UHGV virus genome: UHGV-0077431
Strand: one strand, 5' to 3'
Origin: a virus
Length of the DNA: 41,329 nucleotides
Shown here in pieces: positions 19,420-23,902 of this stretch. Within the stretch, counting starts at the first letter, position 1. Every line of letters starts with the position of its first letter. The notes beneath the pieces are model-generated. The model had not been told where the DNA came from. It did no database searches and worked only from the letters and a program-made list of their open reading frames with translations. The translations under genes were made by a program, and so were the position numbers.

Positions 19420-20472
19420 ATGAAAAATACTGTAAATATAAACAGTGTTGAGCTTATCAACGCTGACTGCCTGCAATACCTCGCTACCCTCCCAGATAAC
19501 ACCATCGACCTTATTGTTACGGATCCGCCTTATTTTAAGGTGAAGCCGAACGGCTGGGATAATCAGTGGAACGGTGACGCCGACTATCTTCGATGGCTTG
19601 ATATGTGTCTTGCCCAGTTCTGGCGAGTGCTTAAGCCTGCCGGCAGCCTGTATTTGTTTTCAGGTCACCGACTTGCATCCGATATTGAGATCATGATGCG
19701 TGAACGCTTCAACGTTATGAACCACATTATCTGGGCGAAGCCATCAGGGCGTTGGAACGGTTGTAATAAAGAAAGCCTGCGCTCTTACTTCCCCGCGACG
19801 GAACGCATCCTTTTCGCTGAGCATTATCAGGGGCCATATAATCCGAAAAGCGACGGATTTGCTGAGAAAAGCAACGAGGTCAAACAGCACGTCATGGCTC
19901 CGTTAATCACCTACTTTCGTGATGCACGAGCCGAACTGGGGGTCACGTCCAGGCAAATAGCTGACGCCACCGGAAAGAAAAATATGGCGTCTCACTGGTT
20001 CGGTACCAGTCAGTGGCAACTACCAAACGAGCAGGATTACGAAAAGCTGCAGGAATTGTTCACTCAGATCGCCATTGAGAAGCACCGCGCCTCTGAACTC
20101 AAAGCACCGCATCACCAGCTGGTGGCCACATGGCATTCGTTGAACCGGAAATACCTTGATCTGCTGGAAGAGTACAAATCTCTTCGGCGGCATTTCTCTG
20201 TGACAGTAGCCGTGCCCTATACAGACGTCTGGACACATAAACCCGTCCAGTTCTATCCAGGCAAACACCCGTGCGAAAAGCCCGCTGATATGTTGCGGCA
20301 AATCATCAACGCCAGCAGCAGGCCCGGCGATGTGGTAGCTGATTTCTTTATGGGCTCGGGATCAACTGTTAAAGCAGCCATTGAACTGGGCCGCCAGGCT
20401 ATCGGCGTAGAACTGGAAGAGGAACGTTTCAACCAGACGGTAAGTGAGGTAAGGCAGCTGGCAGGGGAATAA
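19420..20472 (+). CDS. DNA methyltransferase, beta-class amino-MTase (N6-adenine or N4-cytosine), orphan
   Basis: N-terminal DPPY motif (IVTDPPYF), C-terminal FxGxG AdoMet motif (FFMGSGST); no endonuclease gene adjacent. Confidence 0.85.
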   Translation: MKNTVNINSVELINADCLQYLATLPDNTIDLIVTDPPYFKVKPNGWDNQWNGDADYLRWLDMCLAQFWRVLKPAGSLYLFSGHRLASDIEIMMRERFNVMNHIIWAKPSGRWNGCNKESLRSYFPATERILFAEHYQGPYNPKSDGFAEKSNEVKQHVMAPLITYFRDARAELGVTSRQIADATGKKNMASHWFGTSQWQLPNEQDYEKLQELFTQIAIEKHRASELKAPHHQLVATWHSLNRKYLDLLEEYKSLRRHFSVTVAVPYTDVWTHKPVQFYPGKHPCEKPADMLRQIINASSRPGDVVADFFMGSGSTVKAAIELGRQAIGVELEEERFNQTVSEVRQLAGE

Positions 20473-20542: not shown

Positions 20543-20758
20543 ATGTATCGAATGGAAAAAATCACGACGGGTATTGCATACGGCGCATCGGGTGGGGGGA
20601 CCGGATACTGGTTGCTTCAGCTCCTCGATAAAGTCTCCCCATCTCAATGGGCGGCCATTGGTGTGCTCGGTAGCCTCATGTTTGGTTTGCTGACGTGGTT
20701 AACGAGTCTGTACTTCCAAATCAAAGCGGATCGCCGCAAAGCTGCGCGAGGTGAATGA
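20543..20758 (+). CDS. Holin (phage 21 S-type pinholin), dual-start motif
   Basis: Similarity to S21 as recalled ([30 protein letters not shown]); Met1 and Met4 starts. Confidence 0.85.
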
Positions 20759-21294
20759 TGTCGAACAAAGCAAAGCTCAGCGTAGCAGTGCTGGCGCTAA
20801 TCGCGTCAGGGGCTTCTGCTCCACTCATTTTTGACCAATTCATCAGCGAGAAAGAAGGCAATGCGCTGGTGGCCGTTGTTGATCCGGGTGGGGTCTGGTC
20901 TTTATGTCACGGCGTGACCGTTATCGATGGCAGGCGTGTTGTTAAAGGCATGACGGCCACTGAGGAACAATGCCGGAAGGTTAACGCTATTGAACGCGAT
21001 AAGGCATTAGCCTGGGTTGATCGCAATATCAAAGTGCCTCTGACAGAGCCTCAGAAGGTGGGTATCGCATCCTTCTGCCCGTATAACATCGGCCCCGGTA
21101 AATGCTTCCCATCGACCTTCTATAAGCGCATCAACGCAGGTGACCGCATCGGTGCATGCGAGGCAATCCGCTGGTGGATTAAAGACGGTGGCCGTGATTG
21201 TCGTCTAACCAAAGGCCAGAAGAATGGCTGCTATGGCCAGGTTGAGCGACGGGACCAGGAAAGCGCGCTGGCGTGCTGGGGGCTGGACCAATGA
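20755..21294 (+). CDS. SAR endolysin (T4-lysozyme-type muramidase with N-terminal signal-anchor-release domain)
   Basis: Hydrophobic Gly/Ala-rich N-terminus; E-x8-D-x5-T catalytic pattern ([22 protein letters not shown]); ATGA overlap with holin. Confidence 0.9.
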
Positions 21295-21806
21295 AAATTA
21301 ATCCGGGTCTTATCGGCGTTGTCGTTATTGCTGGCCTTTCCGTCGCTCTCGTTAAGAGCTGCTCCGACGCCAGTAGCCTACAGAGCGATAACGACGTTCT
21401 GCGAAGTGACAACTCTATGCAGGGGCAGGTGATCGCCACCCAGGCATTCAACTTCAATCGATTCAATCAGGTTGCAGAACATGCCAACAGGCTTAACTCC
21501 CTGATCGACACCAGCACCGAAGAAACCGTAATTGAATACCGGGAGATACTCCGCCGTGAAAAAACCTGTGATCTGCCTGTTCCTGCTGACATTGCTGGTG
21601 GGCTGCTCGAATACGCGTACCGTTTACGTTCCAGCGCAATGCACGCCGATACCGACGGAATTAACGCAGCCGATGATAGTACCGCTGCCGCCGGCTCAAT
21701 AACGTACTGCCAGGCTGTGCTCTGGATTAAGCCGCTGCTGGCCGTGATTGAAAAGGGCAATAACAATTTCGCTGGAATTCGTCAAATAGAGAGCGAGCGT
21801 CAATAG
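21291..21806 (+). CDS. Rz i-spanin
   Basis: N-terminal TM helix, ATGA overlap with endolysin stop, embedded +1-frame lipoprotein ORF. Confidence 0.8.
   Translation: MKINPGLIGVVVIAGLSVALVKSCSDASSLQSDNDVLRSDNSMQGQVIATQAFNFNRFNQVAEHANRLNSLIDTSTEETVIEYREILRREKTCDLPVPADIAGGLLEYAYRLRSSAMHADTDGINAADDSTAAAGSITYCQAVLWIKPLLAVIEKGNNNFAGIRQIESERQ
21556..21702 (+). CDS. Rz1 o-spanin lipoprotein embedded within Rz
   Basis: MKKPVICLFLLTLLVGCSN (lipobox LVGC) then Pro-rich; GTG start; not in ORF track. Confidence 0.65.
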   Translation: MKKPVICLFLLTLLVGCSNTRTVYVPAQCTPIPTELTQPMIVPLPPAQ

Positions 21807-21807
21807 T

Positions 21808-21856
21808 CTTTATCCCTAGCAAGGGATAAAGCAACCATTATCCCCGCTAAGGGATA
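21808..21856. promoter_or_regulatory. Pair of inverted repeats sharing TATCCC/GGGATA half-sites (candidate operator)
   Basis: CTTTATCCCT-agca-AGGGATAAAG (21808-21831) and TATCCC-n6-GGGATA (21839-21856); no flanking T tract. Confidence 0.3.
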
Positions 21857-21913
21857 GGCGTTACAGCAGACACTCACCTAATGCCTGTTGCCATTCAGCC
21901 AAGGAGCCAGCCT

Positions 21914-22159
21914 ATGAAAAAAGTTAAAGTTACAATTGCTCACCTTGAAGAGCACTACGAGGGTATTGTTCGAGCCGCAAACGTCACATTCCAGGTTATT
22001 CAGAATGAAAGTGTGATAGTGAAGGATTCTTTATCCGGTAAAGCTTCCCATCCCTTCACTAAAATTTACGCTGTCGATGTTGATGAATCAGCTGTACATG
22101 TGATGCATGATCGGCCTGATTTGAGCTGGTTAACAATTACAGCAGAGCTTGTTGAATAG
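21914..22159 (+). CDS. Hypothetical protein (81 aa)
   Basis: AGGAG 8 nt before ATG; track ORF starts at 21881. Confidence 0.55.
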   Translation: MKKVKVTIAHLEEHYEGIVRAANVTFQVIQNESVIVKDSLSGKASHPFTKIYAVDVDESAVHVMHDRPDLSWLTITAELVE

Positions 22160-22218
22160 TATTTATTTTGCAGCTTCAATTGCTTAGCATTATCTCCGGG
22201 TACCCAAAGGAGATAAAT

Positions 22219-22440
22219 ATGTTTGTTGCAGAAGGCTTGAAGCCTGACCTTGATAATATAGGTTGGGTTATGGGGTGGGGGGTTGTAAGGAATGCCCCGT
22301 GGCATTTAGTCGGTGTTTACGCCACCAAAGATGTGGCCGAAACTAAGGCAGCCTCACTAGGTGAGGGCTATGAAGCCCATTATGGCTCACATCGGTTAGG
22401 CTCTGACGACTTCATCCACCACAACTTCACGCGCAGTTAA
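22219..22440 (+). CDS. Hypothetical protein (73 aa)
   Basis: AAAGGAG SD; followed by terminator. Confidence 0.55.
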   Translation: MFVAEGLKPDLDNIGWVMGWGVVRNAPWHLVGVYATKDVAETKAASLGEGYEAHYGSHRLGSDDFIHHNFTRS

Positions 22441-22462
22441 CAAAAGAAGTTGTTCGATATTT

Positions 22463-22488
22463 AGCCTCGCTTATGCGGGGCTTTTTTA
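22463..22488 (+). terminator. Intrinsic terminator
   Basis: AGCCTCGC-ttat-GCGGGGCT stem followed by T6. Confidence 0.7.
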
Positions 22489-22600
22489 TGCGCATCGCAC
22501 GCGCACACCGTAGAAAGTCTTTCAGTTGTGAGCCTGGGCAAACCGTTAACTTTCGGCGGCTTTGCCGTGCGACAGGCTCACGCCTAAAAGGAAATAAATC

Positions 22601-23068
22601 ATGGGTCATAAAATTATCACGTTGTCCGGCGCGGCGACGGATGTTCTGTATGCGCTGTTTTTCCGTGGCGCGCTTCAGTCTGGTGATCTGCCAGCCAAAT
22701 CTGGTGCTGCTGAGCTTCTAGAGCTGGGATTCGCTGAAACACGCCATACCGCGACGGAGTATCAAAAGGAAAATTATTACACCTTCCTGACCGCTGAAGG
22801 GCAGGAGTTCGCCATTAAGCACCTGGTGAATACGCGCTTTGGTGTTCCTGCTGGTGGTTATATTGGTGGCTCTGTAAATATTCAGTTTGGCCGGATAGAG
22901 AACGACCCACGAAAAGGCTATGCCATCAATGTTGGCATCTGTCCCGAAATTAAGACCGGCGTGAAGCTATCCCCTGAAATGGTAAAAGCGATCTCAGATG
23001 TTGTGTCCGAGGAACTGAAGAAGAGTCTTCGGCCAGGTGGCACGATATGGTCAGCGCTGTCGCGATGA
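22601..23068 (+). CDS. Hypothetical protein (155 aa), last gene before cos
   Basis: AAAAGGA SD; nested inverted repeats in the 5' leader (22530-22581). Confidence 0.55.
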   Translation: MGHKIITLSGAATDVLYALFFRGALQSGDLPAKSGAAELLELGFAETRHTATEYQKENYYTFLTAEGQEFAIKHLVNTRFGVPAGGYIGGSVNIQFGRIENDPRKGYAINVGICPEIKTGVKLSPEMVKAISDVVSEELKKSLRPGGTIWSALSR

Positions 23069-23139
23069 ATGGACGTTTAGACGTCCAAATGGGTGCGAAT
23101 CAAGTCGCATTCCCGCAAATGATAATCATTATCATTTGC

Positions 23140-23356
23140 GGGTCCTTTCCGGCGATCCGCCTTGTTACGGGGCGGCGTCCGCGCAGATTCTCGCTATTTA
23201 TGAAAATTTTCTGGTTTATGCCATTTCCGTTCTTCTTCTTGTTTACTCATTGTTTTTGTTAAAAACGTCCTCTCTCCAGAAAGGAAATGCTGAGCAAGGA
23301 AAACGGAAGTTTACCGTTGATTGTTTCCTTTCTCTGTTTTTTGCCAGGAGTAAGCC
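23140..23356. other. cos packaging site (cosN around 23170-23181 plus cosB)
   Basis: Strong identity to my recollection of lambda cos (GGGCGGCG..., CTCGCTATTTATGAAAATTTTC, TTTCCGTTCTTCTTC) directly upstream of the Nu1 homologue. Confidence 0.8.
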
Positions 23357-23902
23357 ATGGAGGTTAACAAAAAACGCTTATCCGAAATTTTCGGGGTAAG
23401 CGTCCGAACGATTCAGAACTGGCAGGAGCAAGGTATGCCGGTTGTCCGCGGTGGTGGCAAAGGTAATGAGGTTCTCTTTGAATCTGCTGCTGCAATCGAA
23501 TGGTACAGTGCGCGCGATGCAGCTATAGAAAATGAAAAGTTGCGGAAGGAAGTTGAAGATCTCCGTATCGCTTCTGAGTCCGATCTTCAACCTGGCACGA
23601 TTGAATATGAGCGACACCGACTTACGCGAGCTCAGGCTGACGCTCAGGAATTAAAAAATGCAAAAGAGTCCGCTGAAGTGGTGGAGACCGCATTCTGCAC
23701 GTTCGTGCTGTCGCGGGTAGCCGGAGAAATCGCCAGCATTCTCGATGGAATACCTCTGTCGGTTCAGCGGCGCTTCCCGGAGCTGGAGAACCGACATATT
23801 GATTTCCTCAAGAAGGACATCATTAAGGCCATGAACAAGGCAGCTGCGCTGGATGAAATGATACCGGGGTTGCTGAGTGAATATATCGAACAGTCAGGTT
23901 AA
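23357..23902 (+). CDS. nu1: Terminase small subunit
   Basis: Near-identity to lambda Nu1 N-terminus as recalled (MEVNKK..., TIQNWQEQGMPV, GGGKGNEV). Confidence 0.9.
   Translation: MEVNKKRLSEIFGVSVRTIQNWQEQGMPVVRGGGKGNEVLFESAAAIEWYSARDAAIENEKLRKEVEDLRIASESDLQPGTIEYERHRLTRAQADAQELKNAKESAEVVETAFCTFVLSRVAGEIASILDGIPLSVQRRFPELENRHIDFLKKDIIKAMNKAAALDEMIPGLLSEYIEQSG

Follow-up and report, generated by a model that had tools for sequence, protein, structure and literature searches.

The DNA analyzed here, referred to as the window, is the 41,329-nucleotide virus genome UHGV-0077431, a circularly permuted lambda-like phage genome. Its late operon carries an exchangeable accessory block of two units between Rz and cos (21800-23068), with three open reading frames (ORFs) named here orfA, orfB, and orfC. 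The interest of this block lies in two non-coding elements. One is the 5' leader of orfC, a member of a previously undescribed, doubly pseudoknotted RNA family in temperate phages of Enterobacterales. The other is a pair of palindromes located just after Rz, of a type found in HipB operators. Covariation among the leader copies supports a three-helix rod, a base helix formed between a CUUUC sequence and the Shine-Dalgarno (SD) sequence, and two pseudoknots.

The leader RNA occupies 22490-22600 on the plus strand and is 111 nucleotides in length, extending up to the orfC start codon. It is preceded on the same strand by an intrinsic terminator (22463-22488), composed of a stem-loop (22463-22482) whose 8-base-pair stem has 6 G-C pairs, and a TTTTTT run that extends to 22488. 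A segment of approximately 120 base pairs (22472-22603) recurs at 92-95% identity in many otherwise unrelated phages, each time before a different gene. The sequence-only reading of this locus had treated the leader as a local structure of the third gene; it is instead a portable, pseudoknotted RNA family found before many unrelated genes. Identity between the closest (type 1) copies in unrelated phages is 92-98%, and it falls as low as approximately 67% for other types.

A pattern scan of IMG/VR located the leader in at least 120 contigs. Phage records with the leader number 49, at identities as low as 67%; among them are HK620, HK106, HK639, mEp390, and phi80, which has two copies. Of 5426 complete E. 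coli genomes, 116 contain the leader, and it is annotated in none of them. In genome contigs, 56 copies were identified in 54 loci by a profile search. These cover many Enterobacterales genera, including Enterobacter, Citrobacter, Kluyvera, Kosakonia, Buttiauxella, Pantoea, Yokenella, Mangrovibacter, and others. The loose pattern scan of genome contigs returned chance matches from unrelated phyla, which were weeded out with the nhmmer profile.

In annotated phages, the leader lies directly 5' of the ATG of differing genes. These are a tail-region ORF in HK639, a glycosyltransferase in mEp390, a KilA-N gene in HK620, a GIY-YIG-type gene in HK106, and Rha in phi80 and CobraSix. The first ORFs downstream of 193 leader copies form 34 clusters, which include Rha+ORF11CD3, KilA-N, GT2, TerB, T5orf172, HNH_3, tail-tip mosaics, and many unknowns.

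A terminator hairpin, the sequence of which varies, was found immediately 5' of the leader in 146 of 191 copies using a strict test. Further copies have upstream terminator-like stems that contain G.U pairs when examined by eye, and in a minority of other loci weak -35/-10-like hexamers, rather than a terminator, precede the leader (also by eye). About a dozen loci (including L068, L070, L091, L181, L242, L009, L106, L138, and L195) have a leader with no terminator. In these, the leader begins no more than approximately 10 nucleotides past the stop codon of a conserved upstream gene ending ...GAACATCGCATACGAA..TCCTGGTAA. Tandem cassettes, each with its own leader, are present in phi80, L024, and L176. 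Second, more divergent leader copies (33-103 bits) on the same strand, 0.5-6 kb from the first, likewise form tandem leader-cargo cassettes. They are located in L024 (2747-2882), L176 (5676-5808), L105 (4045-4178), L080 (12684-12818), L049 (5979-6111), L155 (5759-5882), L213 (4526-4651), and L006 (913-1043).

A search of the window against Rfam 15 returned only sub-threshold, terminator-driven matches (STnc100 and GcvB, E 0.4-0.7), and five loci with other leader types returned no match. Literature searches by topic and by literal sequence, with most subscription journals outside their coverage, found no description of the leader. Several known motifs were compared directly with the leader and rejected. 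The JUMPstart/ops sequence GGCGGTAG is absent, and the IHF site pattern WATCAA-N4-TTR is unmatched. The lambda boxA/boxB nut sites and the HK022 put sites differ in shape and in position, as the leader is downstream of a terminator. CsrA sites and the hammerhead, pistol, and twister cores were also rejected.

Positions within the leader are numbered so that position n is window coordinate 22489+n, and all of its elements are on the plus strand. The 5'-most element is the hairpin HP1 (22490-22504, positions 1-4/12-15), which has a GCGC/GCGC stem and a 7-nucleotide loop, is paired in 99.4% of alignment cells, and is also found by RNAalifold. The base helix (positions 29-36/95-102) pairs the anti-SD strand UCUUUCAG at 22518-22525 with CUAAAAGG at 22584-22591, which contains the SD, and is 98% paired. 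The SD region of orfC (CUAAAAGGA, 22584-22592) is the 3' strand of this helix. Between the two strands is the rod (22528-22581), composed of P2, P3, P4, an apical loop, and a 6-nucleotide bulge (22567-22572). P2 (positions 39-47/84-92) pairs GTGAGCCTG at 22528-22536 with CAGGCTCAC at 22573-22581; it is 98.2% paired, with double changes in eight of nine pairs. P3 (positions 48-53/72-77, 22537-22542/22561-22566) and P4 (positions 54-56/68-70, 22543-22545/22557-22559) form the inner arms, and together are 91.4% paired with double changes in seven of nine pairs. The nested inverted repeats that the sequence-only reading had noted in the leader are present, with their outer start at 22528 instead of 22530.

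A covariance model was built on the nested pairs only and was used to align 92 leader copies, 86 of which are distinct. In this alignment 96.5% of cells are paired, and double changes occur in 24 of 35 pairs. None of 500 shuffles reached any of the measures, and slid controls gave 25-52%. The nested helices are predicted by minimum free energy folding and are recovered by RNAalifold on an unfitted alignment. In the most divergent copies, P2 changes to AUGAGCCUUUG/CAAAGGUUCAU and P4 to UCAG/CUGA with pairing retained, and the fold is kept in copies at 67% identity or less. The predicted fold has a free energy of -40 kcal/mol for 114 nucleotides without a ligand.

Two further pairings join loops and unpaired segments of this nested structure. 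Pseudoknot a (PK-a) is formed between UCGCAC in the HP1 loop (22495-22500) and GUGCGA in the rod bulge (22567-22572). PK-a is absent from the covariance model and is nevertheless 97.7% paired, with compensatory changes in five of six pairs; on a MAFFT alignment the values are 96.9% and four of six. Its variants are UCUCAC/GUGAGA, UCGUAC/GUACGA, UCGCAU/AUGCGA, CCCCAC/GUGGGA, UCACAC/GUGUGA, and UCCACC/GGUGGA. Pseudoknot b (PK-b) is formed between GAAAG at 22513-22517 and CUUUC in the apical loop (22550-22554). Seven covarying classes of PK-b exist: GAAAG/CUUUC, CGAGAG/CUCUCG, CGAUA/UAUCG, CGAGAC/GUCUCG, CCCGAG/CUCGGG, UCCAAGA/UCUUGGG, and CCACAGAG/CUCUGUGG. The duplex formed with a copy's own partner has a mean of 5.3 base pairs, compared with 4.39 ± 0.11 for permuted partners, and none of 5000 permutations reached the observed value.

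The outer pair of the base helix is U.G on the plus strand in 62 of 86 copies, which on the opposite strand would read as a C.A mismatch. Since G.U pairs are tolerated on one strand only, the plus-strand RNA is taken to be the folded molecule. All nucleotides that take part in the pseudoknots are unpaired in the nested fold, which suggests that the leader adopts a single compact tertiary fold rather than two competing folds.

The block itself was delimited by comparison with related phages. The gene order in this part of the window is holin (20543-20758), lysozyme (20755-21294), Rz (ending at 21806), orfA, orfB, orfC, cos, and Nu1 (23357-23902). The cos cohesive end is located at 23170-23181, based on a 95% alignment to the annotated phi80 cosQ/cohesive end. 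Phage mEp237 is 99.8% identical to the window across 21700-23250. HK225 has the same Rz and cos flanks, and its homology to the window ends at 21799 and restarts at 23069 with 62 base pairs in between. HK225 thus lacks the whole 21800-23068 block, so the locus is variable and the block is an indel. Phages mEp213 and mEp043 share only 22476-23177 (terminator, leader, and orfC) and have other genes after their Rz, and phi80 shares the leader plus codons 1-81 of orfC. A Yokenella prophage contains a methylase, holin, lysozyme, Rz, orfA, and orfB in the same order as the window; its third gene encodes an FRG-domain protein, differs from orfC, and has no leader.

Three plus-strand ORFs with good SD sequences are present in the block, as described in the sequence-only reading. 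These are orfA (21914-22159, 81 amino acids, AAGGAG at 21901-21906), orfB (22219-22440, 73 amino acids, AAGGAG at 22207-22212), and orfC (22601-23068, 155 amino acids, AAGGA at 22588-22592). The distance from SD to ATG is 7-8 nucleotides in each. The GC content of orfA is 0.41, compared with 0.51 for the window. One terminator exists in the block, located after orfB where that reading had placed it, and none exists between orfC and cos. No sigma-70-like promoter was found in 21700-23400 by a consensus scan for sigma-70 (2.4 expected), which includes the region of the palindromes described below. Consensus sequences for sigma-54, sigma-E, and sigma-28 were sought by eye, and nothing was conserved between the leader types. 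In eight annotated phages, all units are co-oriented with the late operon.

Two palindromes lie immediately downstream of the Rz stop codon. Palindrome 1 is TATCCCTAGCAAGGGATA (21811-21828) and palindrome 2 is TATCCCCGCTAAGGGATA (21839-21856), 28 base pairs from the first measured start to start. Both match TATCC-N8-GGATA exactly. These two matches compare with 0.00 expected from 100 shuffles. An imperfect third inverted repeat, CAGCAGACA...TGCCTGTTG, can be seen in the plus-strand sequence at 21864-21890; it accompanies the palindrome pair also in prophages L043, L122, L324, and L070. A DnaA box was rejected as an identity for the palindromes, as only seven of nine positions match.

HipB is an Xre-type HTH antitoxin and a regulator of bacterial persistence. 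The HipB operator consensus is TATCC-N8-GGATA, and the E. coli hipBA O1O2 oligonucleotide has 18-base-pair sites at a 28-base-pair spacing (PMC3376134). The proposal of the sequence-only reading that the palindromes are the site of a dimeric regulator thus gains from both the sequence match and the spacing. Pairs of the TATCC-N8-GGATA type were found in at least 120 stretches of enterobacterial phage contigs, using a scan for TATCC/GGATA pairs that permitted spacers of 6-16 nucleotides. Among the adjacent site pairs in the fetched loci (n = 63, mostly phage), the spacing is 28 base pairs in 54 and 27 base pairs in 9. The pairs occur at various intergenic positions, including beside cos and just 5' of leaders, and in either orientation relative to the neighboring genes. 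The palindromes are most likely bound by a helix-turn-helix (HTH) dimer of the HipB type. No HipB homologue was detectable among the window-encoded proteins using a HipB query sequence, so the candidate binder is HipB of the host or another protein with its specificity. The literature covered by our searches holds no description of HipB sites in phages. Two small viral contigs of IMG/VR (L273 and L315) contain long, iteron-like arrays of GTATCCCCTTAGGGATAC units with a 19-36-base-pair spacing, and these units have the same TATCC...GGATA half-sites.

The SD of orfC is predicted to be largely closed within the leader. The probability that its AAGG core is unpaired is 0.07-0.15 in the window leader and 0.05 or less in the HK620-type leader, and the mean for the SD rises up to 0.83 once the 5'-most 37 nucleotides are removed. 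The base helix that encloses the SD uses a near-invariant CUUUC. The SD is paired in the main leader types; the most divergent copies (L105, L080, and L049) keep the base helix, and their SD is located just 3' of it. Three features, namely the predicted SD pairing, the terminator 5' of the leader, and the shared orientation with late genes, make a translational gate the best-supported reading, and a portable gate of this kind is the most likely role of the leader.

The block can be described under this reading as follows. The first unit consists of the palindrome pair, orfA and orfB, and the intrinsic terminator. The second begins with a portable cassette head, made of the terminator and the 111-nucleotide leader joined to the orfC start codon. 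The terminator would stop transcription that is not antiterminated, and transcripts reading through it would be the Q-antiterminated late ones. On these the leader may act in cis as a gate that holds the ribosome site of the cargo closed, or conditionally open. Two tertiary pairings would lock the fold, one between the HP1 loop and the rod bulge and the other between the five nucleotides 5' of the anti-SD and the apical loop. Because the leader is near-identical in unrelated phages, it could also supply 5' homology for the exchange of cargo genes. Taken as a whole, with an exchangeable block, HipB-type sites, and a leader that serves as a portable translational gate, this reading is judged somewhat more probable than not. 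The analysis shows the distribution and position of the leader family, the covariation of all helices and both pseudoknots, the strand specificity, and the predicted pairing of the SD. We infer the effect on translation, the presence of a gate opener, the binding of HipB, and the role in recombination.

Several points weigh against this reading. The PK-b test described above is our own anchored, alignment-free procedure, and on the MAFFT alignment PK-b is only 60.6% paired, because of a one-nucleotide register shift between classes that the covariance-model alignment also shows. Much of the helix sequence is merely invariant between copies, and the percent-paired values owe something to shared ancestry. 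Conserved unpaired nucleotides are few by eye (C34, G66, and G67), unlike in most ligand-binding or catalytic cores. As the SD lies outside the base helix in L105, L080, and L049, masking of the SD may not be the conserved purpose of the fold. The sigma-70 scan yielded no promoter. HipB binding rests on a sequence match, and the palindromes may serve another HTH protein or form RNA hairpins (RNA fold z = -5.7).

The leader could have other roles, and these were weighed against the translational gate. As an RNA-processing element, either a new self-cleaving ribozyme or a substrate of RNase III or RNase P, it would let the long late transcript be cut just 5' of every accessory gene, so that the cargo acquires a separate mRNA end and stability. 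The compact pseudoknotted fold with strong covariation is consistent with this, as are the unvarying location of the leader at gene borders in the long, polycistronic transcripts of phages and the rod of approximately 20 base pairs with an internal bulge, which is the size of an RNase III substrate. Hammerhead ribozymes that flank individual prophage genes of non-constant identity provide a precedent (Perreault et al. 2011, PMC3088659). Processing is nonetheless unlikely, as no Rfam ribozyme family matched at E up to 1, invariant unpaired nucleotides are few for a catalytic core, and the inclusion of the SD in the structure favors translation over cleavage. We give a similarly low likelihood to a true sensor, in which a small-molecule riboswitch or the target of a host RNA-binding protein would respond to host physiology through its fold. 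Two pseudoknots with an SD helix are the architecture of several translational riboswitches, and PK-b adjoins the anti-SD, so a coupling of the two is possible. Given that the leader is carried by unrelated phages (lambda-like, P22-like, and HK97-like), the factor would have to be a metabolite or a product of the host. Against a sensor stand the 34 unrelated cargo clusters with no common metabolic theme, the scarcity of conserved unpaired positions, and a predicted fold that is very stable with no ligand. A broader proposal is that the leader is a new class of regulatory or catalytic RNA that serves temperate phages of Enterobacterales as a universal plug-in controller of accessory genes, with HipB-type operator pairs in the same phages tying late or accessory expression to the host HipBA persistence module. 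The leader could then be a riboswitch-like sensor or a self-processing element, and HipB could be recruited or titrated by the operator pairs; we regard this as a tentative possibility. Least credible by far is a mere DNA recombination linker, a boundary sequence between modules that has no RNA function. The leader does sit exactly at mosaic joints (the homology of mEp237 to mEp213, phi80, and HK639 begins at or within the terminator and leader), is 92-98% identical in otherwise unrelated phages, and heads each of the tandem cassettes in phi80, L024, and L176. A pure linker would have no reason to preserve base pairing, and the compensatory double substitutions in five helices and two long-range pairings, the G.U pairs allowed on one strand only, and the retention of the fold in copies at 67% identity or less largely refute it.

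The palindromes and the block as a whole also have competing explanations. It is doubtful that the palindromes are RNA hairpins in the 3' untranslated region of the lysis transcript, where they would affect stability or processing, rather than DNA operators. Their position just past the Rz stop codon on the transcribed strand, the predicted RNA fold score given above, and loops that vary while stems are kept agree with hairpins. What is conserved, however, is the outer TATCC/GGATA half-sites and the fixed 27-28-base-pair spacing, which are needed by a cooperative dimer-of-dimers operator and not by a hairpin. The sites also occur in either orientation relative to neighboring genes and next to cos, and their match to hipBA O1-O2 is exact. 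For the block, the sequence-only reading had proposed a classic moron site. A moron is recognized by its insertion between two genes that lie side by side in a related phage, by a promoter and a terminator of its own, and by expression from the repressed prophage (Juhala et al. 2000, as presented in PMC4104026). The variable insertion stands, as Rz and cos are adjacent in HK225, and the low GC content of orfA, the terminator after orfB, and the weak hexamers before the leader in a minority of other loci agree with a moron. The idea of a classic moron holds only in part: the scan gave no sigma-70 promoter and all units are oriented with the late operon, so that autonomous expression is not supported. 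In the Yokenella prophage, orfA and orfB again accompany this lysis cassette. A moron cluster with its own promoters, prophage expression, insulation by a terminator, and a leader hairpin that acts as a local stabilizer is therefore judged improbable, since the leader is also far more elaborate and widely shared than a local hairpin. The translational gate remains the preferred reading for the leader, and the HipB-type operator for the palindromes.

The three proteins are ordinary uncharacterized accessory products encoded in a variable slot. Homologues are conserved for orfA, orfB, and orfC alike. Scans with Pfam, NCBIfam, and PADLOC profiles returned zero matches for any of the three, including none to known anti-phage defense proteins among the PADLOC profiles. 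PHROGs searches returned families of unknown function only. These searches agree with the sequence-only reading, which had recognized none of the proteins, in that no lysis, packaging, or defense family was matched. Sequence searches of the PDB gave nothing meaningful for orfC or orfA. The orfA protein has 19 homologues and matches phrog_2571, and orfB encodes a conserved small beta-alpha-beta protein of unknown function.

The orfC family is a mosaic of proteins 83-341 amino acids in length, with alternative N-terminal modules, variable middles, and a common C-terminal tail (...ALKPGGxxY/W, present in orfC itself as ...PGGxIW). Longer members match PF09327 Phage_Tail_Tip in their variable middles (E values from 1e-5 to 2e-9), and NCBI gives them the name "phage tail tip fiber protein". 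The orfC protein itself has no significant Pfam match, and hence none to PF09327 above the gathering score. An AlphaFold2 model of its N-terminal domain has a block-mean predicted local distance difference test score of about 84-87 over most of residues 11-70. The top Foldseek matches to this domain are all of MarR/PadR/HxlR type, covering approximately 80 residues at 2.3-3.5 Å with weak E values (3e-3 to 3e-2). The orfC protein is predicted to be a short remnant of a tail-tip-fiber mosaic family with a winged-helix N-domain at approximately residues 10-79. Several relatives bear the name "Fur-regulated protein" in their sources.

The 3' joint of the cassette (23040-23100 in the window and 1600-1700 in L249) falls at the C-terminal ...PGG... 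coding motif of the orfC family. In L095, the orfC-family protein continues into cos-proximal sequence (...LGAISHRLTMDVWTSKW...), and HK225 keeps that sequence without the gene. The read-through in L095 and the gene-less sequence of HK225 together suggest that the conserved 3' end of the orfC family is the other recombination boundary.

Other features were noted in the vicinity of the block. A 56-amino-acid ORF with the lipobox LLVGC (21532-21702, plus strand) is nested out of frame in Rz and is unannotated in the mEp237 record; it is very likely the Rz1 o-spanin. A 350-amino-acid ORF lies between Q and the holin gene (19420-20472, plus strand), where mEp237 carries a different gene. Its syntenic 348-amino-acid counterpart in Yokenella matches PF01555 (N6_N4_Mtase), and by way of that match the window ORF looks like a DNA methyltransferase. 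The mEp237 record lists a 71-amino-acid gene (gp63) that spans cosQ and cosN, where the window has the plus-strand ORFs 23047-23262 and 23037-23399; gp63 is unlikely to be a genuine gene. Just left of a cosQ-like GGGTCCT (23140-23146), at 23112-23142, is a perfect 15/15 inverted repeat (CCCGCAAATGATAAT A ATTATCATTTGCGGG). Its core, AATGATAATCATTATC, fits the Fur-box consensus. The repeat is common to phi80, and the phi80 record has a neighboring ORF named "putative Fur-regulated protein".

If it is a functional gate, the leader would be a ready-made, transferable control module. This would explain how potentially toxic genes (Rha, KilA-N antirepressor-like genes, and nucleases) can be carried in a late operon with the lysogen unharmed, and how such cassettes are exchanged. 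Classic laboratory phages carry the leader: HK620, HK106, the mEp collection, and phi80, through which it also occurs in cloning strains of the DH10B type. Existing strains therefore allow a direct test, although neither Rfam nor genome annotation includes the leader. HipB-type operators in phages, if true, would unexpectedly connect the control of phage genes to the host persistence toxin-antitoxin system. The leader and operator pairs mark cassette boundaries and could be used to locate accessory genes during annotation.

The SAM-II/V and preQ1-II riboswitches are translational riboswitches that mask the SD within a pseudoknotted fold. The leader is like them in being a cis-acting 5' leader with the SD in a helix, pseudoknots, and a structure supported by covariation. 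It differs in having no Rfam match or known ligand and functionally unrelated downstream genes, and in being a phage-borne, movable cassette head beside a terminator. Mu com/mom and the lambda N leader with RNase III are cases in which pairing with upstream sequence hides the ribosome site and a factor is needed to open it. A buried ribosome site is predicted for the present leader as well, but those leaders each serve a single gene, whereas this one is a family common to many genes and phages and has no known factor. Prophage hammerheads, like the leader, are small structured RNAs at gene boundaries of long phage transcripts with varying neighbor genes. Unlike them, the leader has no hammerhead core or ribozyme family match.

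Like the lambdoid morons, the block is extra DNA separating genes that adjoin in a relative, and it likewise has accessory functions, a terminator, and an unusual GC content. The own promoter that defines a moron was not found here in the sigma-70 scan, and a conserved structured leader is outside the moron concept. The PF09327 Phage_Tail_Tip profile describes the C-terminal fiber region of lambda J-type proteins and is matched by the longer orfC relatives. Those tail-tip proteins are approximately 1100 amino acids long, whereas members of the orfC family are short, stand-alone proteins of 83-341 amino acids with swapped N-terminal modules. The phage palindromes have the same consensus, the same 18-base-pair sites, and the same 28-base-pair distance between two sites as E. 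coli hipBA O1-O2, and their interiors often have CC....GG in common, as in the 21-mer ACTATCCCCTTAAGGGGATAG used in HipB studies. In contrast to hipBA, the phage sites number two rather than four, are not upstream of a hipBA operon, have no detectable overlapping promoter, and lie in a phage late operon in a window that encodes no HipB homologue detectable with the query used.

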